A stretch of DNA of 31,612 nucleotides from Vampirovibrionaceae bacterium NZW_1234 (GTDB lineage: Bacteria > Cyanobacteriota > Vampirovibrionia > Vampirovibrionales > JAGQHJ01): NCBI GenBank assembly GCA_041697335.1, contig JBGUGD010000027.1, positions 1-31,612 on the forward strand. The letters are read 5' to 3'. This document shows, in pieces, positions 4,707 to 24,486 of this stretch. Numbering within the stretch: the stretch's first letter is position 1; each line of letters begins with the position of its first letter. Position numbers and translations under genes: made by a program. The notes beneath the pieces were generated by a model that worked only from the letters and a program-made list of their open reading frames with translations, had not been told where the DNA came from and ran no database searches.

Positions 4707-5213
4707 TTGGAGAACATGCCCATGGATATGCCACTGTATGCAAAAGACATTATGAGCACCCACGTCGTGACGTTACACGAGGAGATGTTGTGTAGCGAGG
4801 CATTGAACGTATTCATGCTGAATAAATTCACGGGGGCTCCTGTCATCAATCAGGATGGCCGTATTGTAGGTGTGGTGAGCTTAACCGATTTACTGGAATC
4901 AAATATTCACGCCCCTTTTGGTGTGGACTTTTTTACCCATGGGCTGGTGGAATATATGGAAAAAAATATCCAAACCGCAGTTCAAAGTCGCCCCGGCAAA
5001 GTCAAAAACTATGTCAGCCAAAATCTCTATACGGCCTCACCCGAAACACCGGTGAATGAACTTGCTGCACTCATGTACCGACGACAGATTCATCGGCTGA
5101 TTATTGTGGACACACAAAGCAACGAACTGAAAGGCCTCGTCACAACCTTTGATTTAATTAAAGTTCTTGCCACCGTGGATTTAACAGCACAATTGGCTGC
5201 AACCGGCACATAA
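4707..5213 (+). CDS. CBS-domain pair protein
   Basis: AKDIMS...GAPVINQDGRIVGVVSLTDLL and IHRLIIVD...GLVTTFDLI; start may be ATG 4716 or 4722 after GGAG. Confidence 0.92.
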   Translation: MENMPMDMPLYAKDIMSTHVVTLHEEMLCSEALNVFMLNKFTGAPVINQDGRIVGVVSLTDLLESNIHAPFGVDFFTHGLVEYMEKNIQTAVQSRPGKVKNYVSQNLYTASPETPVNELAALMYRRQIHRLIIVDTQSNELKGLVTTFDLIKVLATVDLTAQLAATGT

Positions 5214-5227
5214 ATTCCGCACGTAAA

Positions 5228-5281
5228 AAACCGATTGAAGCGCTCACTTCAAAACCTTGGGGTGAGCGTTTCAATCGGTTT
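5228..5281 (+). terminator. long 25-bp hairpin after the CBS gene (terminator or stabilising stem)
   Basis: AAACCGATTGAAGCGCTCACTTCAA-aacc-TTGGGGTGAGCGTTTCAATCGGTTT; 22 Watson-Crick and 3 G.U pairs on the + strand. Confidence 0.7.
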
Positions 5282-5427
5282 CAACGGTTCTGGGCTAAAG
5301 GAGGTATTACCCGGATGGACAACCGGGGACCTAGCTAAATGTGGCGTCCTGATGCCCATGTAGCTCACTACAATAACAGTATCATCAGAGAACGTACCCT
5401 TAATAAAATCAGTAAAGGACGTGCCCC

Positions 5428-5814
5428 ATGACCCAGTACCATGCCGTTGTTTGGCTTGATCACAGCGAAGCTCGTGTATTTCATATCAATGCCGAGTCCG
5501 TGGAAAAAACGAAGATCCTCGCTTCCAATCCCCATCCCCGATTACACCGCAAAGGGGGCGTTGTCGGCTCGGGACGCCTCAATGAAGATCCGAACTTCTT
5601 CAAACAGATTATGAACGCCCTCCAAGGTGCGCAGGAAATACTTCTAATCGGGCCGGCCTTTGCCAAAATTGAATTTTTAAAATATGTGCAAAAACATAAC
5701 ACCGCCCTTTCAAAATGCATTACCGGTTGTAAAAACTTGGATCATGTCTCTGATCAAACCATCGTGGATTCCGCCCGGGTGTATTTCAAGGCGTTGGATA
5801 GAATGATCGGCTAA
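5428..5814 (+). CDS. eRF1-middle-domain-like small protein ('translational machinery protein'/baeRF-related)
   Basis: HAVVWLDHSEARVF, FFKQIMNALQGAQEILLIGPAFAK, DHVSDQTIV motifs; AAGGA RBS. Confidence 0.75.
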   Translation: MTQYHAVVWLDHSEARVFHINAESVEKTKILASNPHPRLHRKGGVVGSGRLNEDPNFFKQIMNALQGAQEILLIGPAFAKIEFLKYVQKHNTALSKCITGCKNLDHVSDQTIVDSARVYFKALDRMIG

Positions 5815-5979
5815 ACACCGACCGGTCCGGGTCTAATCGGACGGCCTCACGTTTGCTCCAATGGGTAATACACCAAGGAGGAATTTAAACCCACCTCAAG
5901 CGTGCCAAACTAGACATAGATAACAGAACACGTGCTGTTCAGCGATGTAAAACCCTAACTGGAGGAACCATATAAGCCG

Positions 5980-6435
5980 ATGAAAATTTTATTGCCTGTC
6001 GACGAATCCCAAGCCTGTAAGAATACCCTGCAATGGGCCGCTTCATTTCTAGATTCGAAGAGTGCCGAACTTTATTTAGTCCATGCCATTGAACTGGCAC
6101 TGGGTGTCCCCATGGTGGATATTGATTTTAAAGAAGCACAAGCGATCCTGGATACGGCTCGTCAGACATTAGAGGCACGTGGATTCAAAGTCGTAAAAGC
6201 CAATTATGTGGTTGGCTCGGCCACCGAATCAATCTGCCAGTTTGCCAATGACGAGCAGGTCGATCAAATTATTATTGGTTCCCATAGTCGCAATACCCTG
6301 GCCAAAGCATTTATGGGCAGCATCAGCGAAGGGGTCTTTAAGCGGGCCAAACAACCGGTGCTGATTTACCGCAACCAGGGCACGCCCTCTATTGAGATGA
6401 GCCACCTGGAGCAGGTCGCCTTATCTGAACGCTAG
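5980..6435 (+). CDS. universal stress protein (UspA family)
   Basis: MKILLPVDES, DQIIIGSHSR...FMGSISEGVFKRAKQPVLI; GGAGG RBS. Confidence 0.95.
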   Translation: MKILLPVDESQACKNTLQWAASFLDSKSAELYLVHAIELALGVPMVDIDFKEAQAILDTARQTLEARGFKVVKANYVVGSATESICQFANDEQVDQIIIGSHSRNTLAKAFMGSISEGVFKRAKQPVLIYRNQGTPSIEMSHLEQVALSER

Positions 6436-6481
6436 GTTTACTCTCAAAATTGCTCCAGAAACGAATCATAATCGAAGGTAA

Positions 6482-6519
6482 AAAACCCCCTTTGTTCCAA
6501 CAGGTTCAAAGGGGGTTTT
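6482..6519. terminator. bidirectional intrinsic terminator between the convergent USP and CBS genes
   Basis: AAAACCCCCTTTG-N12-CAAAGGGGGTTTT. Confidence 0.8.
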
Positions 6520-6566
6520 GGTTTGCATGAAAAAGGAGCAACTCATTCACGCATAAATACTATGGC

Positions 6567-6953
6567 TTACCGGGCAACGGGAATCAAGCCGGAAGCCAAC
6601 AAATCCAGCAAGTCGGAAATCGTGACAATGCCTACCAGTTCCCCGTTGTTGATAATGGGCAGACACCCAATTCCATAGCCTTTCAGAAGGTTGGCAGCCA
6701 ACTTCACGGTCATTTCGGGAGAGGCGGTTACAATGTCTCGAACCATCAAGTCCCCGACGGTATGCCCTTCACAAACTGTGCTGCCATTGGGGCCCCCCAG
6801 ATCACGCTCCGAAATGATGCCGATGATCTCACTGCCTCGCTTGACCACCAAATGATGAATTCCTTCCAGATTCATCAGATGCCAAGCCTGCTCGGCCAGC
6901 ATGTCATCGGTTACTGTTTTTACCTGGGTTGTCATAATGTCATTCAGTTTCAT
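6567..6953 (-). CDS. CBS-domain pair protein
   Basis: DIMT...IHHLVVK...IIGIISERDL and IGCLPII.NGELVGIVTISDLL. Confidence 0.95.
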   Translation of the reverse strand: MKLNDIMTTQVKTVTDDMLAEQAWHLMNLEGIHHLVVKRGSEIIGIISERDLGGPNGSTVCEGHTVGDLMVRDIVTASPEMTVKLAANLLKGYGIGCLPIINNGELVGIVTISDLLDLLASGLIPVAR

Positions 6954-7048
6954 GGGGCTGAGGTCCTTTCTCGGGTAAGATTAGGGCATTTTATTTCCAG
7001 CATAGCGTTCCCATCGCATAGTCAAATTCACTAAAGGGAGAACGCACC

Positions 7049-7068
7049 GATTACCCAAAAAGGTAATC
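7049..7068. promoter_or_regulatory. inverted repeat GATTACC-N6-GGTAATC between the divergent CBS and Hsp20 genes
   Basis: Perfect 7-bp arms; the half-site recurs upstream of other cluster genes (4595, 5303, 5864). Confidence 0.55.
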
Positions 7069-7180
7069 AACTATTGTGGAATTTTGACATGCCTGGGGTA
7101 TGGCACAGTATCGGTATTGAAAGCGGTTGCATAACCAACCCAAGATTGATTCTTATTCAACGAACACGAGGAGAAAAAAG

Positions 7181-7654
7181 ATGGCTCGACTCATTCGTCC
7201 GTTAAACGATATGCGCCAAGAACTGGATCGTCTGTTTAACGAATTTCATGAAGAATTGACGCTGCCTGCCCGCTTTAATTTGGAATGGCCCACACCACGC
7301 ATGGAGAAAGCCTGGTTACCTGCGATTGAGTTAACCGAAACTGAGTCCCAATACCAGATCAAAGCCGAAGTCCCCGGCATTAAGCCCGAAGATCTGCATG
7401 TTGAGGTCATGGGCAATACCGTCATCATCAAGGGCGAATCCCGAGAAGAGTGTAACGAAGGCGATGATCAGAAAAATATTTATCGTAGCGAAATCCGCTA
7501 TGGCCAGTTTTACCGCCAAGTGCCCTTGCCTTCCAAAGTCCGGGCTGAAGCCTGCAAAGCAGAATTTCAACATGGCATGTTGACGTTAACGCTTCCCAAA
7601 CAGGACGAAGATCAGCAACAGCGCATTAAACTCGAGATAGCTTCAAAATCATAA
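7181..7654 (+). CDS. Hsp20/alpha-crystallin small heat-shock protein
   Basis: WLPAIELTET, AEVPGIKPEDLHV, EIRYGQFYRQVPLP, AEFQHGMLTLTLPK; GAGGAG RBS supports ATG 7181. Confidence 0.96.
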   Translation: MARLIRPLNDMRQELDRLFNEFHEELTLPARFNLEWPTPRMEKAWLPAIELTETESQYQIKAEVPGIKPEDLHVEVMGNTVIIKGESREECNEGDDQKNIYRSEIRYGQFYRQVPLPSKVRAEACKAEFQHGMLTLTLPKQDEDQQQRIKLEIASKS

Positions 7655-7679
7655 TGTGTCCCATACGATACACGCAAAC

Positions 7680-7711
7680 AAAGGCGCCTCACCCGGCGCC
7701 TTTTCTTTTTT
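7680..7711 (+). terminator. intrinsic terminator of the Hsp20 gene
   Basis: AAAGGCGCC-tcaccc-GGCGCCTTT followed by TCTTTTTT. Confidence 0.88.
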
Positions 7712-7736
7712 AGCACCGTTTGCGTTGGCAGGTTCT

Positions 7737-7745
7737 TGTTACAAT
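7737..7745 (+). promoter_or_regulatory. extended -10 promoter, probably giving a leaderless mRNA
   Basis: TG-T-TACAAT ends 7 nt before ATG 7753; no Shine-Dalgarno sequence. Confidence 0.6.
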
Positions 7746-7752
7746 AGTACCT

Positions 7753-9162
7753 ATGAAACTTCATGTTCTCGGTGCTGCCCAAGAAGTCACAGGCTCGTGT
7801 TATTTGGTCGAAACAAACCAATCCCGGGTTCTGGTGGAATGTGGTCTGATTCAGGGGAATTATGAAGCCGAACAACGGAATCGGCACCCCTTTTTATTTG
7901 ACGTCCGCCAGATTGATGCGGTCTTCTTAACCCATGCGCATCTGGATCACAGTGGCCGTATCCCACAACTCATAAAAGCAGGTTACCGGGGGCCCATCTA
8001 CACGCATCAGGCAACCATCGATCTGTGCTCGATTCTGCTTCGGGATTCGGGCTTCCTGAATGAAAAAGAAGCCGAGCTGGCCCGTCGGAAGAAGCATGCA
8101 GGCAAAAACAAACATGCCTTAACCGAGCCTTTGTACACGGCCCAAGATGCAGAAATGGCCATGCGCTATTTTAAGGCCCTACCCTATGATCAGCACATGG
8201 CGATTCTTCCCGACATTGAGGTGCGTTATCGGGATGCGGGCCACATCCTGGGATCGGCCAGCATCGAAATGTGGGTATCTGAAGGTAACCGTACTACCAA
8301 AGTGGTTTTTAGCGGCGATCTGGGGCATATTAATGCCCCTATCCTGAAAGATCCGGCTCCCATTGACGACGCCGATCTGGTATTGTTGGAAAGCACCTAC
8401 GGCGACCGAAATCACCGTTCATGGGAAGACACCTGGGCGGAATTGGGTTCCATTTTCCAACAAACCCAACATCATCACGGCAATATTTTGATTCCCGCCT
8501 TTGCCGTCGGGCGGACACAAGAGCTTCTCTACGTTTTCAAACAGAATTTTCAGGACTGGCATCTGAATGAGTGGCAGATTTTCCTGGATAGTCCGATGGC
8601 AATTGAAGCCACAAAGGTTTATGCTCGCTACGCCCATCTCCATGATGACGATTGCAGCCAGGACGCGTTTGATTTGCCGAACCTGACCAACTGCAGCTCT
8701 CCAGAGCAATCGATGATGTTGAACAACATCCGTTCAGGGGCCATTATTATTGCTGGCAGCGGCATGTGCAACGGTGGACGCATTCGTCACCATATTCAAC
8801 ACCATATCAACTACCGGCAAAACCAGATGATTATTGTTGGATTCCAGGCCCAAGGCACCCTGGGGCGTCAGCTGGTGGACGGTACCAAAACCATTCGCCT
8901 TTGGGGAGAAGAGATTGCTGTACAAGCCAAAGTTCATACCATTGGCGGGCTTTCGGCCCATGCCGATCAAGACGGCCTGCTCTCCTGGTGTCGGCATATT
9001 AAGGGCAATCCCACGATTGGCTTGATTCATGGCGAACCGACAGCCATCACCCCCCTGGCAAACCGCTTAAAAGCGGACCTAGGTCTTCGCATCATCGTTC
9101 CCAATCGCAAGGATGTCATTGATTTGGCCACACTGCGGCTTCACTCAACAACACATCACTAA
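7753..9162 (+). CDS. MBL-fold beta-CASP ribonuclease (CPSF73/YSH1-like bacterial family)
   Basis: GAAQEVTGS, THAHLDHSG, AGHILGS, FSGDLG, ESTYG, AGSGM, LSAHAD motifs. Confidence 0.95.
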   Translation: MKLHVLGAAQEVTGSCYLVETNQSRVLVECGLIQGNYEAEQRNRHPFLFDVRQIDAVFLTHAHLDHSGRIPQLIKAGYRGPIYTHQATIDLCSILLRDSGFLNEKEAELARRKKHAGKNKHALTEPLYTAQDAEMAMRYFKALPYDQHMAILPDIEVRYRDAGHILGSASIEMWVSEGNRTTKVVFSGDLGHINAPILKDPAPIDDADLVLLESTYGDRNHRSWEDTWAELGSIFQQTQHHHGNILIPAFAVGRTQELLYVFKQNFQDWHLNEWQIFLDSPMAIEATKVYARYAHLHDDDCSQDAFDLPNLTNCSSPEQSMMLNNIRSGAIIIAGSGMCNGGRIRHHIQHHINYRQNQMIIVGFQAQGTLGRQLVDGTKTIRLWGEEIAVQAKVHTIGGLSAHADQDGLLSWCRHIKGNPTIGLIHGEPTAITPLANRLKADLGLRIIVPNRKDVIDLATLRLHSTTHH

Positions 9163-9167
9163 AACGC

Positions 9168-9602
9168 CTATGTCTGAGTCGGCGGTTGTGTATGAAGCAA
9201 ATCCAACACTTTGCGAATTACCCGAGGAAGGGCTCGAAATTTTTGGGTTGCGGCTTCATCTGCCGTAAACAGTTTGATCCGACCAACCCCTTGGGTGTGC
9301 TTCACGTCATACAGGTCTCGCTCAGGATCGGCCAGGGTGGCTCCCTTAGAGACCAATAATTGCGACACGTAGGCTTTCTGGTCACAATCGTTTAAAAACA
9401 AATTCAAACGCCCATCGTTTCCCATCAAGGGAATCACATGGGTATCGAAAATCGTATCTTGTTCTAAGGTGGCCACCAGTGCCGAGGACCAATCCCTGGG
9501 TTTGCGGCCAAATGGTGGGGAGGTCACAACGTTATCCGCCCTGGTCTCCCGAGAACCCATACGGGAAACAGGACCAAGGCGAGGAGAGGTAATCATCAAC
9601 AT
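9168..9602 (-). CDS. hypothetical protein with an N-terminal xxFG-type leader
   Basis: GGAG upstream of ATG 9602; leader TSPRLG-PVSRMG...TSPPFG; then a ~110-aa globular-looking domain. Confidence 0.75.
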   Translation of the reverse strand: MLMITSPRLGPVSRMGSRETRADNVVTSPPFGRKPRDWSSALVATLEQDTIFDTHVIPLMGNDGRLNLFLNDCDQKAYVSQLLVSKGATLADPERDLYDVKHTQGVGRIKLFTADEAATQKFRALPRVIRKVLDLLHTQPPTQT

Positions 9603-9707
9603 GGGCGATCGCTCCATTGGATACACATGACAAGGTTCATGGAATAACGTAATAGGGTTATGGTTTGCAAAACGGATGGGGATGTCAACACAACGGCCTC
9701 ACAATCA

Positions 9708-10070
9708 CTAGTTCTTGGTAATGAGCTTTAATACCCAGGTCGGTACATGGGGCTCGTTGATAACATAGCAATTGGGATCATCGGGCTCGGCGGCACCGCC
9801 CATTTTTGGAAGAATACGCGCCAACCAGCGCTCCAGGAGTTCCGCAGGGGTGGGGATGAAAAAGTAGGCTTTCGGACGCCCCCGGTAATCCAACCAATCG
9901 GAGGGCAGCATAATGGCCTTATCCAAGGCCCGTTGGACCGAACGGTTTTCTTCACGGTCGGCCGAATCCAGCAATTGGGCTTCCATGGTCGCTGCACGGC
10001 GCTTCAGAAAGCGCAGGGTAAAAAAATCACCCTGGGAACCAAAGCGAACCGAAGGACCCGACACGCGCAT
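9708..10070 (-). CDS. hypothetical protein, N-terminus MRVSGPSVRFG
   Basis: GGAG directly upstream of ATG 10070; co-oriented with its neighbour. Confidence 0.75.
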   Translation of the reverse strand: MRVSGPSVRFGSQGDFFTLRFLKRRAATMEAQLLDSADREENRSVQRALDKAIMLPSDWLDYRGRPKAYFFIPTPAELLERWLARILPKMGGAAEPDDPNCYVINEPHVPTWVLKLITKN

Positions 10071-10220
10071 AAACTCCATCACTCCACATTGATTACGGAT
10101 TACGGTTAGCTATTTGTATTGTCTGGGCTCAAGACACAAAATCCAGTGGGAGTTTTTCGTTGAAATCCAAAGAATACATTTGCTATGGTAAAACCACAGC
10201 ATCGATATTCGGGGGTAATA

Positions 10221-10748
10221 ATGATTCATCTGGGTCATCGAAGCTATATCTTTGGAAATCCACCGTCCAATTTTTTTGAGGTGCCTGTTTACGTGGGAAA
10301 TTATACGGGCATTGGCACCAACTTAACGATTCTTGGCGGCTCCGGACAGCATCCATCGGCCACCCATCCGGAGTGTGTCTCCAATTTCCCGTTTGCCGAA
10401 TTTAAAATGGGCGATTATTACCCCAGTGTTGGCAAAGGTGCGATACATATTGGTCATGATGTCTGGATTGGTGCCCATGTGACCCTGCTGGACGGGATCA
10501 GTATCGGTAATGGTGCCATTATTGGTGCCGGAAGCATCGTTGCGAAATCCATCCCGCCATATGCCATTGCCGTGGGCAACCCGGTTCAGATTAAGAAATT
10601 CCGCTTCGATGAAGCAACCCGTGAAGCCTTACTGGCAATTCAATGGTGGAACTGGTCGGAGTCGGACATCCAGGATGCGCTGCCACGGATGAAAGATATT
10701 CACACGTTCCTGGAGCATTACTCAACCCCACCAATGCCGACGACATAA
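10221..10748 (+). CDS. CatB/Vat-related hexapeptide O-acetyltransferase
   Basis: VSNFPF, KGAIHIGHDVWIG, IGNGAIIGAGSIVAK.IPPYAIAVGNP, LLAIQWWNW. The ORF-track ATG at 10185 overlaps a TG-C-TATGGT -10 element, so 10221 is preferred. Confidence 0.9.
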   Translation: MIHLGHRSYIFGNPPSNFFEVPVYVGNYTGIGTNLTILGGSGQHPSATHPECVSNFPFAEFKMGDYYPSVGKGAIHIGHDVWIGAHVTLLDGISIGNGAIIGAGSIVAKSIPPYAIAVGNPVQIKKFRFDEATREALLAIQWWNWSESDIQDALPRMKDIHTFLEHYSTPPMPTT

Positions 10749-10773
10749 CGCCCTTAAAGCTTCCTTATAGTTA

Positions 10774-11166
10774 TTATGCTTGCAGATCGAGCTTGGGTAG
10801 AATGGCATCCAGGCCACCCGGGTTGGTCCAGGCAGACCGTTCGTTGGTTCCGCCCCCATCACGCTGGATATAGTAGGGCATCCCATATTCATACTGCCCC
10901 GTGGCCTGATACGCGAAATTCACTTTGTTGGCCTGAAGAAAGGAGAATATATCGGCTGCCCGTTGAGGGTTGTTATCATCATTAAATTGCCCGGTATAGT
11001 GGGTTTCTTTGCCGTTGCGAATAATGCCGAATTCACATCCGGGAAGAGACCAGCCTTTATTTAAAAACTCATGTACATTGATCCCACCCGGTACTTCGGA
11101 CGTGGGCTTTGCAGTGAGCCGAATATTGTAAAACCGTCCTTGAAACCGTAACGCATTGGTTTTCAT
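10774..11166 (-). CDS. hypothetical protein, N-terminus MKTNALRFQG
   Basis: GGGGAGAAG RBS before ATG 11166; stop converges on the acetyltransferase gene. Confidence 0.8.
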   Translation of the reverse strand: MKTNALRFQGRFYNIRLTAKPTSEVPGGINVHEFLNKGWSLPGCEFGIIRNGKETHYTGQFNDDNNPQRAADIFSFLQANKVNFAYQATGQYEYGMPYYIQRDGGGTNERSAWTNPGGLDAILPKLDLQA

Positions 11167-11303
11167 GATGTCTTCTCCCCAAACGTAACCAACAGTTTGA
11201 TACTGAATGGCAGCATAAACCAATCGACTACAGAAATCATCCACGTCTCACACTCCAGAGCAAAGCGTTAACTTTAGCCCCGAGTGGCTTGCCGTAATCC
11301 CCA

Positions 11304-11579
11304 TCAGGACTCCGGAAAGTAGTAAATGGTTCCAATCACATGGCCTTCGGCCGTCGTGAGGACAACAAATCCGTGGGCAGATTTAAAAATGGCTTTGACC
11401 ACCTCTCGTTTTCCCCCGGTTTCCCGTAAATCCAAGCCGGCTTTTTCACTGATGGTCAGCATGCCATAGGGACGCTTTATCCGAATGGTTGACAGATTGG
11501 GGTCGGTCACGGACGGATCAGCGGCTCGAACAAAATGAAGGTACATTTCCCGCCATTGAAATGTGGCTTTTTGCGTCAT
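11304..11579 (-). CDS. small hypothetical protein
   Basis: 91-aa ORF with beta-strand-like composition; start may be 11546. Confidence 0.55.
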   Translation of the reverse strand: MTQKATFQWREMYLHFVRAADPSVTDPNLSTIRIKRPYGMLTISEKAGLDLRETGGKREVVKAIFKSAHGFVVLTTAEGHVIGTIYYFPES

Positions 11580-11607
11580 AAAAAAAGGCCCAGATTCCTT
11601 TGGGCCT
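11580..11607 (-). terminator. intrinsic terminator
   Basis: Minus strand AGGCCCA-N8-TGGGCCT followed by a T run; lies 36 nt after the stop of 11643..11822. Confidence 0.75.
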
Positions 11608-11642
11608 ATCCTATCAAATTTATGAGAGAACTCGAAATTGAA

Positions 11643-11822
11643 TTATCCCCGAACAATCAACGGCATTTTCATTAACGTCGACAATTTCCAATCATGGCGA
11701 AGGGCATCCAGATTCAGCGTGGCACTTCCATCTTCATGAACAATAATCTGATTTGGCTTATACCCAAAAGAAAGCAACAAATCCGCATCAGAAAGTGACT
11801 CAAACCCTTTCCCAATCATCAT
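11643..11822 (-). CDS. 59-aa small protein (below the ORF-track cutoff)
   Basis: MMIGKGFESLSDADLLLSFGYKPNQIIVHEDGSATLNLDALRHDWKLSTLMKMPLIVRG*; AAAGGGA RBS, TTGATC-N16-TATAAT (11863-11890) upstream, terminator downstream. Confidence 0.7.
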   Translation of the reverse strand: MMIGKGFESLSDADLLLSFGYKPNQIIVHEDGSATLNLDALRHDWKLSTLMKMPLIVRG

Positions 11823-12087
11823 TTATTCCCTTTCAGAAAAGCATCTTACTTCATCTATTGGTATTATACCGGATTCATCATTCGGATCAATCCGTCCTCA
11901 GCCACAATAGCCCAGGTCGGCTATGTCACCAGGTTAAAAAATTGGCTAGCCAAACCCGCTTGCTGAGGCTCGCATCACTACCGTTTATTACTAAAGTCAC
12001 GCCAATGGACGTGGGCTTGCACTTACCCGTTTTTTCCGCAAAATAAATGAATACTATCCTTAAAGGGTTTTGCGGTATGGGGGGTGT

Positions 12088-13167
12088 ATGCATTCGGTAT
12101 CGTTCATGACACATACGGGGCATCTCAAGGTCCCCCATGCGTTTACCGATGCACCTCAACGACAGACTCGGTTCGGAAATAGCGCTTCATTACCGACACC
12201 GCCGCCTAAAGACTTGCCAAAACAACCACCACCACAAAAGTCTTGGCGAAAGTGGCTTCGCTCTTTGCTGACCGTAGGGATATTGGCTGCAACGTTGATT
12301 GTTCCGGATATGGCTATTTTACAGCGTAATATCCGAAACCTGTTTCGCAGCAAAGCACGTTCCGGGCTGGATCATGAGCAGGCCCACCCCAGTTTGTATA
12401 CATCAGCCAAACTTATCCCGGACCATTTTGAATTGAAGCCCTACCAGGAAAACCAGGGAGACAACAACGGCTGCGGGACAACATCCCTGTCCATCTGCCT
12501 CAATATGATTCGCCCGGGCGAGGATGTCACAAGGGCCTCCATAGACAGCTCCATCCGCCGTGCAGACATTTACGCCACCCCGGATAGCCTTAGCCGGGAG
12601 GCCCGAAGACAAGGCTTCGAGGCAGAAATCTACAATGACAGCAATTTGCTCGAAATTCAGCAGCATCTGCTCCAGGGAAACCCGGTCATTGCGATGGTCA
12701 AAACCGGCACCCGAGGAAAATCCTTCACCGCCCATTATGTAGTTGTTTACGGCTACGGCAAAACCCCGGAGGGACAATGGCAGCTCAAAATCTCCGATCC
12801 TGCCGGCGGACAAATATACTCACAATCCTGGACAGACTTTCAGGAACAATGGCGCGACATTGACATCGGGGGTGTTTCCAGCGGACACCATAATTTAATC
12901 CTCGTCGTTTCCGACAATCCACTTCCCGCAAGCCGATACCATTACAACTTTCTAAACACATGTGCAGATAACCTCGCACGAATCATCAATACAGGCACCT
13001 CTCTGGTAAGCGCCGACGTGAAAAGCCTTTGGAGCAAAGATACCCAAAATGGCAACCTGCTTCGTTTGGGTACAATCCTTGCCTGTGCCATCAGCTTTTT
13101 AAGAACACGAAAACAAAAACCCACAGACGTTTCAGTAAGTCCCACGCCGCAACCGCAAAATCAGTAA
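12088..13167 (+). CDS. C39-like (papain-fold) cysteine peptidase with TRFG leader and TM segments
   Basis: Q...NGCGTTSL (Cys), AHYVVVYGY (His), ISDPAGG (Asp); hydrophobic segments near both ends; GGGGG RBS before ATG 12088. Confidence 0.85.
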   Translation: MHSVSFMTHTGHLKVPHAFTDAPQRQTRFGNSASLPTPPPKDLPKQPPPQKSWRKWLRSLLTVGILAATLIVPDMAILQRNIRNLFRSKARSGLDHEQAHPSLYTSAKLIPDHFELKPYQENQGDNNGCGTTSLSICLNMIRPGEDVTRASIDSSIRRADIYATPDSLSREARRQGFEAEIYNDSNLLEIQQHLLQGNPVIAMVKTGTRGKSFTAHYVVVYGYGKTPEGQWQLKISDPAGGQIYSQSWTDFQEQWRDIDIGGVSSGHHNLILVVSDNPLPASRYHYNFLNTCADNLARIINTGTSLVSADVKSLWSKDTQNGNLLRLGTILACAISFLRTRKQKPTDVSVSPTPQPQNQ

Positions 13168-13169
13168 CG

Positions 13170-14288
13170 TCAACCCACAGGTTGCAGAGGACGTTTGGAC
13201 TCAAGCTCACTTAAAAACGATTCCAAACCTGCCATTAATTGCTCGGGTGCTTTTTCATAGACTTCATGGTGCTCACAGCCCGTTAACGCCAGAAATCCTT
13301 TCGGTAAATGGGAGGGAGCCGCCTGGTGCAAGGCCTTGCTCATCCAAAGCGGTGTTGCGTCATCGTTAACGGCACCGGCAATAAAAACCGGTGACAAGCA
13401 TCGCTGGATGCTTTCAAGAGAGTTAAATTTGGAAATGGCCGCATCCTTGGCCAGGAATCGTCGAAGCCCAGGAGAGAAGCGGTTGATTCGTTGTGCAATG
13501 GCATCATCCATACTGGTGAAAGACGCTGTGATGGCAACCGCTTTAAACGGGATTCGCTGAGCCACGTTGGCCAAAACGCCTCCCCCCAATGAGCTGCCAA
13601 CGGCCAGCTGATTACGGGACTCAACACCATAGCGCCGGGTTAAAAATCGGCTAGCGGCTTCCAGGTCCTGGTACAATCCTTCTTCCGACGGCTTACCATC
13701 ACTGTTGCCATACCCGCGGTAATCAAAAACAAAAATATCAAAGCCGTTTTTCGTGAATAACTCAATAACCGACTCGCAATCGTTGAGATTACAGGCTCGT
13801 CCATGGGCAAACAAGACGACCGGTCTTGGACCTTTCTCCCGGGCTGCTTCCGGATCGGCTTTCACAAACCAGCCGTTCAACCGGGTTCCATCGGCCGAGG
13901 TAAAATATTCATCGGTCAAGCGAGCTTTTATCTCGGATGATACCAACTTGTCTGGCGACGCCCCTTTAATAGGCGTGTACAAGTGTGTCTGCTCCAAGCC
14001 GGCCCGAATCGACTTTATGGGCAGCCAGGACAAAATAATCGAGGCAAACACGACTTTCGCATCATTCAGTGTCTGCCAAATGCTCGTTGTTTTGGCCGGC
14101 GCGGCTAGCACTTTAGGCTCAGGTTGAGCTGCATCGGCCTGCTTTTTTGCGGCAAACAAGACTGATGCTAGGGCTCTGCCTTCAGAGGCCGCTTGAACAG
14201 AAGTAGCGTGAAAAGCTCGATTCGCTGTCTTTCCAGCGATTAGCACCTGTTGACGTGTTGGATTGTCCGTATTCTGAATAACTCTCAA
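13170..14288 (-). CDS. alpha/beta hydrolase (ABHD13/ABHD17/BEM46-like)
   Basis: LFAHG, FDYRGYGNSDGKPSEEGLYQD, GSSLGG nucleophile elbow, D..TP, CEHH; TTG start with AGGGG RBS. Confidence 0.92.
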   Translation of the reverse strand: MRVIQNTDNPTRQQVLIAGKTANRAFHATSVQAASEGRALASVLFAAKKQADAAQPEPKVLAAPAKTTSIWQTLNDAKVVFASIILSWLPIKSIRAGLEQTHLYTPIKGASPDKLVSSEIKARLTDEYFTSADGTRLNGWFVKADPEAAREKGPRPVVLFAHGRACNLNDCESVIELFTKNGFDIFVFDYRGYGNSDGKPSEEGLYQDLEAASRFLTRRYGVESRNQLAVGSSLGGGVLANVAQRIPFKAVAITASFTSMDDAIAQRINRFSPGLRRFLAKDAAISKFNSLESIQRCLSPVFIAGAVNDDATPLWMSKALHQAAPSHLPKGFLALTGCEHHEVYEKAPEQLMAGLESFLSELESKRPLQPVG

Positions 14289-14393
14289 TGGTTTTTACCC
14301 CTACCGGTCAAATCCGTATTTCCCGGACTCGATCTGTTGAACTTCGATTGTACCGCAATAAAACCTGTCAAACGGATATTTTGATAGTGCTTC

Positions 14394-15494
14394 TTACACA
14401 GCCTTGCCTTTTTCAGACGCCAATCGGTCGATAAAGGCATCCAGGTGATCCATCATGATCTCACCGCCCTTGCTGAACACCGTATCGTGATCACATCCGG
14501 GAACCGCCGCAAAAGCCTTTGGAAGGGTTCTCGGTGCGGATCGAAACAAGGTCTTCCCCATTCTGAGAGGTGTCACGTTATCCTTGTCTCCACAAAGGAT
14601 TAACGTAGGTGATTTGCAGTCTGCAATTTTATCCAGGGAGTTAAACTGAGAGCGCACCAGGTTTTCAGACATGATGTAGCGAACCAGCCAGTTCGCCTGG
14701 TCTTTTTGATGCTTCAACGCATCATGAAGCCTGGTGAACGAAGACGTAATGACCACTGCCTTAAAGGGCGTACGGGAGGCAACATCGCTCAATACCCCAC
14801 CCCCCAGGGAATAGCCCATGACAACTTGCTCTCGGGAAGGGACTTTATACTTCCTGGTCAGAAAGCGGCTGGCCGCTTCTAAATCGTGGGACAGGCCCAA
14901 TTCATCCGGCGTGCCTTCACTATTGCCAAAGCCCCGGTAGTCGAAAACAAAGATGTCATAACCCCGTTTTGTCGCGTTTTTCATGATATCTTCATAATCC
15001 TGAATATTGGTAGCTCGCCCATGCGCAAACAAAATAACCGGACGTTTTCCATTTTTGGCCACCGCCTCGGGATCAGCCTTGAGATACCAGCCATGTAACT
15101 TGGTCCCATCCAAAGATCTGAACCATTCGGATTTTAGACGTTTTTTAATGGCATCTGATTTTAATTCTTCTTTAAATACCGGTTTTGGCGGAGCATACAG
15201 GAATTGCCGTTCCATAAACCTTCGCAAAGCTGGGATGGGCAACCAACTAAAGACCATGACGGCCAAAATGATCTTGAGGGTTTGGAGATACTCCCAGAGA
15301 CTTGAAATGGCACGCCGATAAAACGGTGTGGTGTTTTTCCCCGCATCATCGACTTCCTTCCCCTGGAAACGCACTTGGTCCTGGGCACGCGAAGACAGCA
15401 GTGCCGATACTCTGCCTGCCTGCGAATAGGCTTGCATTAATTCCGGCTTCATCGCAGAAGTTGCAGGATGATATAGAGCGGGTGAGACAACCAA
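14394..15494 (-). CDS. alpha/beta hydrolase, tandem paralog, with VRFQG leader
   Basis: LFAHG, FDYRGFGNSEGTP, GYSLGG, GDKDNVTP, CDHD; TTG start with GAGGA RBS. Confidence 0.92.
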   Translation of the reverse strand: MVVSPALYHPATSAMKPELMQAYSQAGRVSALLSSRAQDQVRFQGKEVDDAGKNTTPFYRRAISSLWEYLQTLKIILAVMVFSWLPIPALRRFMERQFLYAPPKPVFKEELKSDAIKKRLKSEWFRSLDGTKLHGWYLKADPEAVAKNGKRPVILFAHGRATNIQDYEDIMKNATKRGYDIFVFDYRGFGNSEGTPDELGLSHDLEAASRFLTRKYKVPSREQVVMGYSLGGGVLSDVASRTPFKAVVITSSFTRLHDALKHQKDQANWLVRYIMSENLVRSQFNSLDKIADCKSPTLILCGDKDNVTPLRMGKTLFRSAPRTLPKAFAAVPGCDHDTVFSKGGEIMMDHLDAFIDRLASEKGKAV

Positions 15495-15575
15495 AATTAG
15501 GATTCCTCAAGTCAGAACGCAATGAAGGTACCGTATTAAAACACAACAAGCTCGGGTTTTGATAGCATCCACTCG

Positions 15576-15602
15576 ATATCGGTTCAACAATAAAACTATT
15601 TG
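15576..15602 (-). promoter_or_regulatory. possible sigma-28-like promoter for the hydrolase pair
   Basis: CAAA-N15-ACCGATAT versus consensus TAAA-N15-GCCGATAA. Confidence 0.4.
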
Positions 15603-16171
15603 CCGTTCTTCTTAATTTGCCCGATAGATGTTGATTGGCTCACGGTTTGAGTACTGCCCGTGGACGTGCTACCAGACCCACTGGAACTTGCGGTACCGGA
15701 AGTGCTGCCGGTGGAAGAACCCGTCGTCGTGGAAGAACCTGTACCGGAAGAGGTACTGGTGGCATTAGACGAAATATCAGCCAAAACGCGGTCAGTGTCC
15801 CTGGAGGAACTATTAGTACGGGTATTTGCAGGGCGACGCAACCCACTGGTCTGATAAGCCTGGTAAAGATGCTGGAATAAACCGGCAAACAGATTAAAAG
15901 TCGGGTCACCCGCCTCTGTGGCCAATTGAGCCTGGATAGCTGGATTTTGGCTTGCAAATAAAGCGGTCAGCGGGGAAGGGGCTGACGGGGCAGGAAAATT
16001 AGAAAACTGAGGTATGAAGCCAGAGGTAAAGGGACCAACTGGGCCATCGTAGCCAAATGCAGCGTAGCTTTGAGCCACAGGGAAGGCATTTGGCTGAGGA
16101 CCAACCCGGCGAACAGCAGGCGGGTTGCCTACCATTGGAGCACCGAATTGATTGGGAACACCATAAAACAT
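15596..16171 (-). CDS. low-complexity disordered hypothetical protein (Pro/Phe/Gly-rich N-terminus, Ser/Thr/Gly-rich tail)
   Basis: Long ORF with biased composition; start uncertain (16171-16201). Confidence 0.75.
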   Translation of the reverse strand: MFYGVPNQFGAPMVGNPPAVRRVGPQPNAFPVAQSYAAFGYDGPVGPFTSGFIPQFSNFPAPSAPSPLTALFASQNPAIQAQLATEAGDPTFNLFAGLFQHLYQAYQTSGLRRPANTRTNSSSRDTDRVLADISSNATSTSSGTGSSTTTGSSTGSTSGTASSSGSGSTSTGSTQTVSQSTSIGQIKKNGK

Positions 16172-16377
16172 GACGTCTTTACCACTGATCATTACACACA
16201 CATCTATACATCAATAAAGTATATCTTTTGTAAATAATTGCCTTCTCGCCATTCTTTTATTACGAAATTGTTACATTTCCCAATTCTCTTCTGAATTTGA
16301 ACATCAATGCAGAACAGACCCAAGCAGCAACCCGCTGGGTCTGTGGTGAATCGATAAAACCAAGTCAATCCAACTTA

Positions 16378-21206: not shown

Positions 21207-21899
21207 GTGAATCTGAGTTCTTTGTCATCGCTTTTACAACCCCAACTATCCTCGTCGTCCCTTCTGGGCGGCTCGAGCCTCCTAGGTGGTGCATCCAGCC
21301 TACTTGGCGGCTCATCACTCCTGAGCGACCCCTTTAGTGCCTTGGGTAGCTCCAGTCTCTCAAGCCTTACCGGCTCCAGCATTCTTGGCGGTATTCCCGG
21401 CCTATCGGGAGCGCCCTCGCCATTCACGTCCATCGGTCGTCCGGCTCCAGCTCCCCAGAAGCCGATGCCAGATACCAGCACCTTTCTGGTCCAAACCCTG
21501 GTCAAAACCCTGCTGAAAAAAGCCTTGGGCGATATCGATCCCGAATCACCCAAAGCCATGGTGCTTCAGCTCCTGTTCAAAATGATGGGCCTGCCCATGG
21601 ACGATTTATTCAAGTCTAAAAAGTCGGACCCGGTCCGTAGTTCGCTTTTAACGCAGCTCAGAAATCTTGAACCCGAATCGCCTCAGGCGGTGGCTATTCA
21701 AGCTCGTCTGGCACGCCTTGACTCAGAATCTGATGAAGACAGCAATCCCATGGGTTCTATCATGAAAATGATGACCGGCGGCCAAGGCGGTGGCGACCCC
21801 ATGAGCTCCATGATGAGCATGCTGACGGGTGGCCAAGGTGGCAGCGACCCCATGATGAGCATGATGGGCATGCTCATGAGTTCGATGTTCAAGAGCTAA
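21207..21899 (+). CDS. Ser/Leu/Gly/Met-rich repeat protein (harpin-like composition)
   Basis: AGGAGG RBS before GTG; SSLLGG repeats; three 17-aa C-terminal repeats; no Cys, Trp, Tyr or His. Confidence 0.85.
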   Translation: MNLSSLSSLLQPQLSSSSLLGGSSLLGGASSLLGGSSLLSDPFSALGSSSLSSLTGSSILGGIPGLSGAPSPFTSIGRPAPAPQKPMPDTSTFLVQTLVKTLLKKALGDIDPESPKAMVLQLLFKMMGLPMDDLFKSKKSDPVRSSLLTQLRNLEPESPQAVAIQARLARLDSESDEDSNPMGSIMKMMTGGQGGGDPMSSMMSMLTGGQGGSDPMMSMMGMLMSSMFKS

Positions 21900-22989: not shown

Positions 22990-23406
22990 TTAGTGGCTGT
23001 TGAGGATGTAGCGTAGCTTTTCTTCTTGCTCCCGGTTTAAAATCCGGCGCTTATTGAGGTAGATCTGGGTCGCGTCCATGCGCAATCGCGCATTATCTTG
23101 GTGAATCTGCTGTTGTAGCTGAAGAATATCTTCTTCACGCCCGCCTGGTGAGGCCATAAGCGTCTTCAGCTTCTTCCGGTTACTCTGAAGACGAGGAGCC
23201 ACCTGCGAAACCGACGATTTCCACTGCCGATCCAATTGATGCAATTGCTCGCGTTGTTGAGTAGATAAATCCAGGCTTTCCCAATCAATTTCAACAATTT
23301 CGTCTTTTGCCATTACGGGCGTACCTGTAGACCAAAGCACATAACAAACTAATGCCAAGACAGAGCAAACAGTGATAAACCATTGAGCGTGACGAGTAAC
23401 TACCAT
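22990..23406 (-). CDS. Spy/CpxP-like periplasmic protein
   Basis: Signal peptide, LDLSTQQ and ILNREQ (LTxxQ-type) motifs; GAAGGA RBS supports start 23406. Confidence 0.85.
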   Translation of the reverse strand: MVVTRHAQWFITVCSVLALVCYVLWSTGTPVMAKDEIVEIDWESLDLSTQQREQLHQLDRQWKSSVSQVAPRLQSNRKKLKTLMASPGGREEDILQLQQQIHQDNARLRMDATQIYLNKRRILNREQEEKLRYILNSH

Positions 23407-23431
23407 TGGGTTTCCTTCATACTCTTCCTTC

Positions 23432-24481
23432 TTATGGTGACTCACTAAACAGATATGCAGACACATCTGTTTGAGAAGCATCGACTGCTTCTTCGCCTAG
23501 TAAGGGATCTGAAGACTGAGAAAATAAATACGCTTCAGGCGTACTGTAGATAACGTTATACGTAGCATCAACTTCTTTGGAGACTTGGCGTTTAGCTGAT
23601 TCCTGCTGATCAGCCATCAGGGCACTTTCCAACGCAGCAACATTGATGGTTTGGGGAGCCTCAGCCTCTTGCAACCCCGTCTGTGAGAAAATGGACGGTC
23701 CGGCATACACAAAGAGTAACATTGCTGCGGCAACGGTCCCGGTCAGTGCCAAGGGCAAGCGGCGTCTCCAGAATGGCACCACATTCGATTTGGGTTTTAA
23801 GGCCCCTTCAACCTGAGGCCACAGATCCAATTGGATACGCGCCTGAGCCTGAACATACCAGGACTTCAAGTACTTCACCGTAACATGTGCCGAGGTGAGC
23901 TCGTCCTGACATGGTGGGCATTGTTCCAGATGAACAGTCAACATGGCCTTTGTTTCAGCCGACAAATGGTCATCCACGGCGGTAGAAAACACTTCATAAT
24001 CCACCACACCACATCCGGACATCGGAAAAGGCGTCTCATCGGTCAGGGTTTTACGCTCCTCGGAAAAGCGCATCATCACAGAAGCCGAAAGATCAAAACG
24101 CTCCAACTGCTCTTCAAGCCGGTATAAATGGCGGCGATAACTATCTTGCACCTCAAACAAAAGCCCCAACTGCTGATGACATGGCATGCACTGGGGCAAA
24201 TGTTTTTCAAAATTCTGGATGCGGGTTGTCAGAAGCACCGGATCCGTCAGTTCCAGGTCCAGCTGCTGATCGAAATAGGTTGAAATGAACTCGAAATCGT
24301 ACTGGCAAGGCGGTGCACTGGCGAGATCGGCTTTGAAAAGATCCATGACACTTTGCGTCAGGTCTGGAACATCTACCAACTTCTGTTCCAAAATCCGTTC
24401 AACGTCTGATGGAACATCCACTTGCTCAGGCAAGCGATTTTGGCTGTGATCCGATGCATCGGGGAATGGTTTTTCGGACAT
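23432..24481 (-). CDS. membrane-anchored anti-sigma factor with two zinc-finger (ZAS) motifs
   Basis: HLPQCMPC and HLEQCPPC (HxxxCxxC); VVPFWRRR followed by a TM segment; directly downstream of the ECF sigma gene. Confidence 0.85.
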   Translation of the reverse strand: MSEKPFPDASDHSQNRLPEQVDVPSDVERILEQKLVDVPDLTQSVMDLFKADLASAPPCQYDFEFISTYFDQQLDLELTDPVLLTTRIQNFEKHLPQCMPCHQQLGLLFEVQDSYRRHLYRLEEQLERFDLSASVMMRFSEERKTLTDETPFPMSGCGVVDYEVFSTAVDDHLSAETKAMLTVHLEQCPPCQDELTSAHVTVKYLKSWYVQAQARIQLDLWPQVEGALKPKSNVVPFWRRRLPLALTGTVAAAMLLFVYAGPSIFSQTGLQEAEAPQTINVAALESALMADQQESAKRQVSKEVDATYNVIYSTPEAYLFSQSSDPLLGEEAVDASQTDVSAYLFSESP

Positions 24482-24486
24482 GAACC

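Follow-up and report, generated by a model that had tools for sequence, protein, structure and literature searches.

About one protein in ten of the genome studied here (roughly 275–470 proteins, 9–16%) carries an N-terminal leader with a hydrophobic-R-F motif. This RF[GSA] leader is probably the address label for a dedicated flagellum-derived type III machine, set 2, which stands beside the true flagellum and would read the tag; we place the probability of this reading at about 60%. The analysis started from a window of 31,612 nucleotides from Vampirovibrionaceae bacterium NZW_1234, in which six genes with such leaders are clustered (Table 1).

The tag motif is real and genome-wide

All six motifs reported by the preliminary description were located in the window. 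The genes had been assigned to several unrelated types, which is correct except that the two hydrolases are paralogues (46–49% identical), leaving five types. The motif had also not been seen at the N-termini of the housekeeping genes of the window. This mostly stood, but the cupin gene scored 10.5 via QRFSG, probably inside the domain, and is one false positive. Additional copies of the SPRLG and SRMG kind find no support as a rule: at least two motif copies were found in 59 of 301 leaders versus 70 expected, so multiple copies per leader were rejected.

Table 1. Genes and promoter-like elements at 9168..15570 of the window.
Feature	Position (strand)	Motif or element	Score and remarks
Orphan protein, 144 aa	9168..9602 (-)	leader end TSPPFG; PPFG nt 9518-9507, F31 from ATG 9602	PSSM 9.7; no Pfam match
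Orphan protein, 120 aa	9708..10070 (-)	short leader end PSVRFGS; VRFG nt 10049-10038, F10 from ATG 10070	PSSM 16.7
Hexapeptide-repeat acetyltransferase	10185..10748 (+)		untagged; inside the interval, outside the tagged set
Orphan protein, 130 aa	10774..11166 (-)	leader end ALRFQG; LRFQG nt 11151-11137, F8 from ATG 11166	PSSM 12.1
Orphan protein, 91 aa	11304..11579 (-)	weak variant ATFQ nt 11556-11567	score 3.5; possible seventh member
Peptidase_C39_2 protein	12088..13167 (+)	leader end QTRFGN; TRFG nt 12166-12177	score 11.3
Alpha/beta hydrolase	13170..14288 (-)	weak motif VLFAA nt 14162-14148	score 9.3; strong upstream element
Promoter-like element	14353..14392 (-)	GCAA/TCAA - N - TTGA - N - TTTA	score 23.3; upstream of 13170..14288
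Alpha/beta hydrolase	14394..15494 (-)	leader end DQVRFQG; VRFQG nt 15374-15360	score 13.1
Promoter-like element	15531..15570 (-)		score 19.4; upstream of 14394..15494

In the whole genome, [SAP]-[VPLI]-R-F-[GSAQ]-[GSA] tags were matched in 301 of 2929 genes versus 26 expected, with gene models from a caller made for this analysis, on which the starts depend. RFG was the top enriched k-mer in residues 4–60 (165 versus 31.5 predicted from internal rates). The pattern of the preliminary description was enriched at N-termini as proposed there (211/2848 versus 42.3 in 200 shuffles, maximum 63); it was matched at 39 C-termini, in 29 of 2440 internal windows and 20–66 times across the five other frames. 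RFG is encoded by 36 codon combinations, indicating a protein motif rather than a DNA repeat. The tagged set spans 258 unrelated families, and the tag is depleted in core genes (6/184 versus 295/2745 of the others), also as anticipated.

Given our own gene caller and some false positives among the matches (GlgC, a phosphoglucomutase-like protein and the cupin), the tag might be suspected to be an artefact that reflects sequence composition, misplaced starts or a repeat in the DNA. However, the shuffle, off-frame, C-terminal and codon controls were passed and exclude a DNA-repeat origin of the motif, an independent DNA element is common to tagged genes, and the tag recurs in three other genomes of family f1 (10/136 versus 1.1). 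The probability of an artefact is therefore negligible.

Leaders, cargo and a shared upstream element

The preliminary description had held that the tagged proteins lack Sec/Tat signals and that their leaders resemble the disordered signals of type III substrates, and the data agree with both. With signal peptides called by a hydropathy heuristic instead of SignalP, hydrophobic N-termini were found in 21/301 tagged versus 537/2319 untagged proteins, and heuristics gave one Tat-like signal and no lipobox among the 301. At least four transmembrane segments were present in 0/301 tagged and 176/2319 untagged proteins. The leaders are rich in Ser, Pro, Thr and Arg and poor in acidic residues (D+E 4.4% ahead of the motif versus 11.3% in protein bodies). 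In the AlphaFold model of the hydrolase at 14394..15494, residues 1–56 have pLDDT below 50, and this leader is likely disordered. Double-glycine (C39/PCAT) leaders are acidic and amphipathic, end in GG and occur on short peptides; the acid-depleted tag leaders, with cargo of 305 aa median length, do not belong to that class. A search of the ESM Atlas with the leader alone as query gave no usable match.

A repertoire of effectors had been proposed for the cargo. Classical effector domains do not make up most of it: many tagged proteins duplicate cytoplasmic enzymes that use ATP or NAD. No Pfam match was found for 61 of 97 sampled tagged proteins (63%), versus 19 of 60 untagged neighbours. The tag is grafted onto second copies of PurA, Gmk, Lon, Clp and FtsH-like proteins, and untagged housekeeping copies are retained beside the tagged ones. 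For 52 tagged proteins an untagged paralogue was available with good coverage; in 42 of them the motif lies outside the shared domain. The motif often adjoins the folded domain directly. In tagged PurA the tag takes the place of the initiator Met, and an RF leader was seen in 0 of 119 database homologues. A PrkA/SpoVR/DUF444/ClpP gene run is tagged throughout; other tagged types include sigma-70-domain proteins, a NAMPT-like enzyme and MalQ. In the family of the window hydrolases, close relatives have leader variants and three distant ones have a lipoprotein-type signal instead.

These ordinary cytoplasmic enzyme types, the PrkA run and the sigma-70-domain proteins included, would also suit an intracellular label (adaptor, degron or localisation signal) on a stage-specific regulon, whose proteins stay inside while set 2 does other work, and co-regulation suits any stage-specific programme. 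This explanation is rather unlikely, because untagged housekeeping copies are kept, most sampled tagged proteins are orphans, the hydrolase leader stands where relatives have a lipoprotein signal, and polytopic membrane proteins are fully excluded. Plastid and mitochondrial presequences are Ser/Pro/Thr/Arg-rich and acid-poor as well, so the motif might serve not in export itself but once the cargo is inside an algal cell, as a site of processing or as a mimic of organelle transit peptides. The frequent contact of motif and folded domain fits this idea, and a plastid would be a fitting place for Clp, FtsH-like, MalQ and sigma-70-domain proteins with the tag. However, transit peptides are longer than 15 residues and many leaders are shorter than that, a variant leader occurs in a small Gastranaerophilales-type genome, and no matching protease was identified, which makes the mimic quite improbable. 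The hydrophobic-R-F motif is probably a targeting or export label.

An oriented, promoter-like element common to tagged genes is new here. Its consensus is GCAA[C/T]-N17-[G/T]TT with TTGAG within the spacer. It was found upstream of 85/301 tagged versus 50/2319 untagged genes (8 and 42 on the reverse strand), or 53/301 versus 47/2319 when cross-validated, and 171 of 196 element sites in the genome lie outside genes. A strong element is missing from about 70–80% of tagged genes, including four of the six window genes, and the element was not found upstream of the set-2 genes themselves. Assignment to sigma-54 or sigma-28 promoters was rejected, as no match to their consensus was seen by eye. 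A divergent FliA-like sigma gene, g2411, lies behind flhB2 in 21 of 29 loci; it is present in 31 of 33 FlhA2-bearing relatives and in 0 of 8 genomes of families f5 and f10. This sigma factor or its paralogue g1542 may read the shared element.

A second flagellar-type export set

The genome of the window (G000) encodes two export sets of the flagellar type, both complete. Set 2 consists of FlhA2, FlhB2, FliOPQR2, FliI/H/J2, FliF/E2 and a FliN-type protein, together with FlgB/C/F/G-like rod proteins, a FliK-like ruler and a lytic transglycosylase; FliE, FlgB and FlgC are all in the C32 locus. MotA, FlgH, FlgI and FlgK are single-copy. The second FliF, FliI, FliN-type protein, FliP, FliQ, FliR, FlhB and FlhA are homologues of the injectisome core (SctJ, N, Q, R, S, T, U and V). 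FlhA2 forms its own clade (support 100) on the flagellar side, outside SctV, in a FastTree phylogeny with a midpoint root only and eight near-redundant Gastranaerophilales rows left out, and it scores below the cut-offs of both TIGR01398 and TIGR01399. The preliminary description had suggested testing whether the tag occurs together with T3SS, flagellar or T4SS loci. A candidate machine of the type III/flagellar type is present, but no VirB4 (PF03135), VirD4 (PF10412), TssC or contractile sheath was found in G000 (94.75% complete), and T4SS, T6SS and contractile sheath were rejected as routes.

Secretins export proteins that Sec or Tat has already brought into the periplasm. Labelling for a type IV pilus/type II secretin, Tad or an unrecognised system would be consistent with secretins in 21 of 21 genomes, set-2-only families included, with the two secretins of G000, which lie in pilus-type and Tad-type loci and not beside set-2 genes, and with the lack of an identified outer-membrane part for set 2. 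However, this route needs a Sec/Tat step for which the tagged proteins mostly have no signal, and family f5 has secretins yet no tag in 277 genes; it is improbable. Some bacteria export non-flagellar proteins through the flagellum, and the true flagellum (set 1) could likewise be the exit, since G000, f1 and f3, in which the RF form was seen, all have a full flagellum and both FliD copies start with a tag-like I/L-x-F-G-G. In contrast, genome G160 without FlhA1, flagellin, MotA and FlgH still has variant leaders and the element, and filament assembly would face competition from 300+ substrates, so exit through set 1 is very unlikely. The RF motif was not found in the rod/hook proteins of both sets.

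As for a component that binds the leader, the CesT chaperone profile gave no match in a search whose control also matched nowhere, and the one YbjN-type match (E 0.036) was under the cut-off. The product of g2601, behind fliI2, was rejected as a universal chaperone or conserved reader: it matched only itself and one weak sequence among 1.84 billion representatives, and had no useful Pfam match. The predicted complex of the FlhB2 C-domain and a window leader scored 0.02.

FlhA2 was found in families f1–f4, f6–f9 and f11, in only 1 of 47 f5 genomes and in neither of two f10 genomes. Set 2 persists where flagellin, MotA and the L ring are lost. In f7, f8 and f9 genomes keeping set 2, flagellin was found in 0/22, MotA in 0/18 and FlgH (L ring) in 0/16, FliI2 in 18/18 and FlhB2 in 15/15; rod proteins were matched in 7/7 (f7), 6/7 (f9) and 0/5 (f8). 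FliI2 is about 70% identical between G000 and f7.

The tag samples of the relatives are small, with one or two genomes per family and kin that are not independent. The f3 sample was marginal (3/88, p 0.06). In G160 (f7, Gastranaerophilales-type, set 2 only), the G000 matrix minus its R column gave 8 variant leaders versus 3.3, and the element was found at 8/27 leader-like genes versus 38/397 others. The regex [PVIT][SNQ]F[GKST], picked after viewing the data, gave 18 versus 7.2 in f7; the literal SFKG/FTG pattern (4 versus 2.6) was not enriched in any sample, nor was the element in independent Gastranaerophilales loci (2/12 versus 24/193). Tag enrichment was not detected in the set-2-bearing f2 (0/68), f4 (0/55), f6 (0/66), f8 (1/57) and f9 (0/105; 3 versus 2.1 without the R column). 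The sample of the FlhA-less family f5 (0/277; 4 versus 4.7) showed neither the leaders nor the element. Unbiased k-mer discovery, of low power in samples of 43–501 genes, did not recover the motif in relatives.

Described systems and proposed function

Injectisome substrates resemble the tagged proteins in that unrelated cargo begins with a leader that is rich in Ser and Pro and independent of Sec. Type III export signals are not known to have a consensus and are hence hard to define, whereas the consensus is clear here. As in the injectisome and the Myxococcales intermediate (PMC3459982), eight core export components are present a second time and motility parts are missing in set-2-only genomes. 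In contrast to the injectisome, FlhA2 is outside the SctV clade, no secretin was seen beside the set-2 genes of G000, and set 2 retains FliE, FlgB and FlgC, used as flagellum-specific markers by Abby & Rocha 2012 (PMC3459982).

In Lysobacter enzymogenes OH11 a flagellar T3SS without flagellin is reused for secretion and linked to killing of other microbes (PMC7688988), and Buchnera basal bodies, a flagellar export core without filament, are implicated in protein export (PMC8109811). The set-2-only genomes have genes for a similar core without filament. Those systems are remnants of a single flagellum, whereas set 2 is a duplicate beside a complete flagellum across the class, with its own sigma gene and hundreds of tagged candidate substrates. 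Early flagellar subunits have a hydrophobic extreme N-terminus and a gate-recognition motif docking on FlhB-C, which sits about 36–40 residues from the N-terminus at a required spacing (PMC8983047). The tag is also a short hydrophobic motif in a probably unstructured N-terminal region of apparently unchaperoned candidate substrates, but its sequence differs. Its F ranges from fewer than 10 to more than 60 residues (median 26), and in 36 of 83 promoter-anchored genes it lies inside the first 19, closer to the N-terminus than described for the gate-recognition motif.

In the T4SS model of Soo et al. 2015, Vampirovibrio chlorellavorus brings hydrolytic enzymes into prey via an attachment structure (PMC4451040). 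Enzyme delivery into prey is common to both proposals, but G000 has no VirB4/VirD4 match; the accessible text of that paper mentions one flagellum, no type III system and no N-terminal signal. Di Rienzi et al. 2013 noted two flhA genes in ACD20 and a MEL.A1 genome without filament, cap, junction, L and P rings, and interpreted the residual flagellar genes of gut Melainabacteria as ongoing genome reduction (PMC3787301); here the genes kept are a separate conserved set 2. In the literature searched, mainly papers outside subscription journals, the motif, the element and a second export set were nowhere described; the duplicated genes may be included in Table S3 of PMC4451040 and in Supplementary file 1 of PMC3787301.

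In the proposed mechanism, the Ser/Pro/Thr-rich, acid-poor leader would remain unfolded, a gate component or an unrecognised chaperone would bind its hydrophobic-R-F core, and the cargo would be threaded N-terminus first through set 2 to end in the cytoplasm of another cell, prey or host. Without ATP, nucleotides or RNA polymerase, the AAA proteases, PurA, guanylate kinase, NAMPT-like enzyme and sigma-70-domain proteins that bear the tag would be idle, which argues for a second cytoplasm as destination; delivery into another cell has slightly less than an even chance. Tentatively, Vampirovibrionia may possess a second contact-dependent injection machine, derived independently of the injectisome from a flagellar basal body that was duplicated, with its own sigma factor and consensus tag. 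It would send several hundred proteins, including ATP-dependent proteases, nucleotide and NAD enzymes and sigma factors, into prey or plastid, and non-motile gut-type relatives would keep the machine.

A consensus this clear, found on roughly every tenth protein and accompanied by the element, makes the signal directly testable and yields a catalogue of candidate substrates. It suggests that the flagellum gave rise to a secretion machine a second time, and predation by Vampirovibrio could be explained in this way instead of by the T4SS model. What was read as a 'decaying flagellum' in gut Melainabacteria could be a secretion system that is conserved, with a bearing on their resistance to culture; if it is an injection machine, the gut-type non-motile relatives would also be predators or parasites of some host. 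For this group of non-photosynthetic cyanobacterial relatives, tag and machine together could be the way of sending enzymes into other cells.

The leader motif and the proteins that carry it

The six N-terminal motifs of the window sit at the positions given in the preliminary description, and its interpretation as an export signal is partly supported; the feature is far larger than the window, which is contig C22 of the NZW_1234 genome (3.70 Mb, 41 contigs, 94.75% complete). Genes were called with a self-trained dicodon model (3021 calls, starts uncertain), and leaders were taken from the longest ORF start. RFG ranked first among the k-mers of residues 4–60 (165 versus 31.5 expected). It occurred in 168 of 2848 N-termini versus 25.7 in shuffles (maximum 41), and in 40 C-termini, 27 of 2440 internal windows and 34–70 sequences in other frames. 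The positional enrichment proposed as a check is supported, and RFG is encoded by 36 codon spellings. An EM matrix gave the consensus [SAP]-[VPLI]-R-F-[GSAQ]-[GSA], with 301 of 2929 genes scoring at least 10 (tagged genes; 26 expected), 422 scoring at least 8 (92 expected) and an estimated tagged total of 472. Tagged genes were mildly clustered (60 adjacent pairs versus 30.5), so what the window shows is a local instance of something found genome-wide. The expected depletion in core proteins was also observed, the tag being rarer in genes conserved in distant relatives (6/184) than in others (295/2745).

The 301 tagged proteins fall into 258 families. Proteins with four or more transmembrane segments are absent among them (versus 176/2319 untagged), and a hydrophobic N-terminus was found in 21/301 versus 537/2319, which supports the proposed anticorrelation with signal peptides. 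The content of D+E is 4.4% in the 20 residues preceding the motif versus 11.3% in protein bodies. Pfam was scanned for 97 of the 301 tagged proteins, those from 20 motif-dense regions; of these 61 had no match, as against 19 of the 60 scanned among 188 untagged neighbours. The tagged types include C39, subtilase, trypsin, FtsH-like, Clp, Lon and ClpP proteases, alpha/beta hydrolases, HEAT and TPR proteins, PurA, guanylate kinase, NAMPT-like, CinA, adenosine deaminase, Nudix, ADP-ribosylglycohydrolase, MalQ, DAG kinase and Ppx, while YdjM and a TPP enzyme are likely false positives. Untagged paralogues were present for 81 of 356 proteins scoring at least 9, and in 42 of the 52 well-covered pairs the motif lies outside the shared domain. 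Tagged PurA, which is on a long branch, has the motif at a place where 119 homologues carry either nothing but the initiator Met or an unrelated stretch. One window hydrolase, in whose structural model residues 1–56 are low-confidence, has leader variants in four close relatives and lipoprotein-type signals in three distant ones. Both FliD copies start with I/L-x-F-G-G, near the tag consensus; this resemblance may hint at where the motif came from, or it may be coincidental.

The shared upstream DNA element

An oriented element, GCAA[C/T][T/A]T-N7-TTGAG-N-[G/T]TT[T/A]A, lies mostly 30–100 bases upstream of the start in 85/301 tagged, 30/212 weakly tagged and 50/2319 untagged genes; on the reverse strand it was found for 8, 1 and 42, respectively. 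With one half of the contigs used for training, the other for testing, and a single start rule, it was recovered for 53/301 tagged versus 47/2319 untagged genes. Only 25 of 196 strong sites lie in genes, while genes cover 82% of the genome. The strong element is missing from three quarters of tagged genes and from the four other motif genes of the window, but it precedes both window alpha/beta hydrolases, which strengthens the case of the weak VLFAA hydrolase. Its GCAAY-N17-KTT spacing resembles that of alternative-sigma promoters, and the element is probably a promoter.

Another 54 genes have the element and no RF motif. Their N-termini are equally acid-poor and often Tyr/Pro/Gln/Gly-rich, and signal peptides are rare (4/54); they may encode a further class of substrates or structural components. 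Two low-complexity orphan ORFs of the window, with no Pfam match, have similar N-termini.

A second flagellar-type export set and its distribution

The preliminary description proposed testing for co-occurrence with type III, flagellar or type IV secretion loci. A second flagellar-type export set, the candidate machine, is present; no match to VirB4, VirD4, TssC or sheath proteins was found in the genome (94.75% complete). FlhA and FlhB each occur twice. Set 1 corresponds to an ordinary flagellum, with FlhA over the cut-off and with FlgH, FlgI, FlgK, FlgL, three flagellins and MotA. Set 2 is dispersed over four contigs, and its genes are themselves without the element.

Among 201 genomes of the class, FlhA matches were found in all of families f1–f4, f7, f8, f9 and f11 and 29/30 of f6, and in 1/47 of f5 (which we guess to be Obscuribacterales) and 0/2 of f10. 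These relatives, together with the names of homologues, are the basis for assigning NZW_1234 to Vampirovibrionia. In a midpoint-rooted FastTree phylogeny, FlhA2 of f1, f4, f6–f9 and f11 forms one clade separate from FlhA1 and the SctV group, and f7 sequences cluster with records titled Gastranaerophilales/Melainabacteria. FlhA1 is lost in two f7 genomes. Motility parts were absent from f7–f9 (flagellin 0/22, MotA 0/18, FlgH 0/16) where FliI2 (18/18) and FlhB2 (15/15) were kept. A divergent FliA-like sigma factor, g2411, occurs in 31/33 FlhA2-bearing relatives versus 0/8 others, directly behind flhB2 in 21/29 loci. A second such factor, g1542, is 42% identical to g2411, and many relatives have a second match too. 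Of FlhA, only the cytoplasmic domain is present in a stand-alone protein with a novel N-terminal part (492–507 aa; FHIPEP positions 314–655), which is encoded in one f4 and two f7 genomes; none was found in NZW_1234.

Non-hydrophobic N-termini from sampled regions of relatives were scored with the NZW_1234 matrix. The tag was found in 10/136 for f1 (1.1 expected), 3/88 for f3 (0.9 expected), 1/293 for f7 and 1/57 for f8, and in none for f2 (0/68), f4 (0/55), f6 (0/66), f9 (0/105) and f5 (0/277). With the R column dropped, f7 had 8 versus 3.3 expected (maximum 7 in 100 shuffles), and no enrichment was seen in f9 (3 versus 2.1) or f5 (4 versus 4.7). Leaders of G160, an f7 genome with set 2 only, resemble PSFG, PNFSG, ISFTG and VSFSG. 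The NZW_1234-derived element preceded 8/27 leader-like versus 38/397 other genes in G160 (p 0.005) and 5/24 versus 9/146 in f1, and was unenriched in f5 (1/18 versus 28/483) and independent Gastranaerophilales loci (2/12 versus 24/193). The RF form is therefore characteristic of f1, the set-2-only genome has a variant of it, and none occurs in the sample of the FlhA-less f5. No enrichment appeared in the small samples of the set-2 families f2, f4, f6, f8 and f9. This distribution is consistent with export by set 2, short of proof.

Locations of features (C, contigs of NZW_1234; L, loci)
Feature	Contig or locus	Position	Strand
Set 2: fliI-flhA-fliH-(unassigned gene at fliG position)-fliF-fliE-transglycosylase-flgC-flgB-flgG/F-like	C32		
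Set 2: fliN-type-fliO-fliPQR	C8		
Set 2: fliJ-fliK-like-flgE/F/G-like	C30		
Set 2: flhB	C29		
Pair of small orphan paralogues immediately after fliI2, no usable homologues	L009	8784-9857	
Sigma factor g1542	C16		
Stand-alone FlhA-domain protein	L206		
Stand-alone FlhA-domain protein	L207	1474-2952	-
Stand-alone FlhA-domain protein	L208		
PrkA, SpoVR, DUF444, PrkA, ClpP: five adjacent genes, own tag each	L142	9785-19961	
FliD copy	L017	662-2461	
FliD copy	C5	141547-143340	
Tagged sigma-70-like protein	C2	10943-13102	
Tagged sigma-70-like proteins g0700, g0815	C8		
CBS-, USP-, HSP20-, metallo-beta-lactamase-like run, presumed from translations; looks like a stress cluster	Window	4707-9162	
Orphan ORF, Pro/Gly/Ser/Thr-rich	Window	15596-16201	-
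Orphan ORF, Ser/Leu/Met-rich	Window	21207-21899	+
Consecutive genes for an ECF-type sigma factor, a zf-HC2 anti-sigma and a CpxP/metal-resistance-like protein	Window	22990-25161	-

Relation to known systems and a candidate mechanism

Abby and Rocha (PMC3459982) define injectisomes by a secretin and flagella by FliE/FlgB/FlgC; as a working whole, set 2 matches neither definition. The filament-less systems of Lysobacter (PMC7688988) and Buchnera (PMC8109811) are remnants of the single flagellum. Compared with the flagellar gate-recognition motif (PMC8983047), the RF tag differs in sequence and position. Soo et al. (PMC4451040) propose a type IV system for Vampirovibrio; Di Rienzi et al. (PMC3787301), who report two flhA genes, interpret the filament-less gut genome as a case of decay. 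The literature searched contained no account of the tag, of the element or of a second export set.

The tag and set 2 appear to function as the signal and machine of type III export do, but by the features examined set 2 is not an injectisome. In the mechanism that seems most likely, an alternative sigma factor tied to set 2 would turn on the tagged repertoire. Each protein would present a leader that is unfolded and poor in acidic residues, and recognition of its hydrophobic-R-F core would take place at the set-2 gate or close by. The cargo would then leave Sec-independently and act in the cytoplasm of another cell; this destination is proposed because enzymes that depend on ATP, nucleotides or RNA polymerase would be of use only in such a setting. 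Three tagged proteins (719–1078 aa) have sigma-70-like regions, by a Sigma70_r2 match for the one on C2 and by weak BLAST only for g0700 and g0815; if delivered, they would be predicted to act on bacterial-type RNA polymerase.
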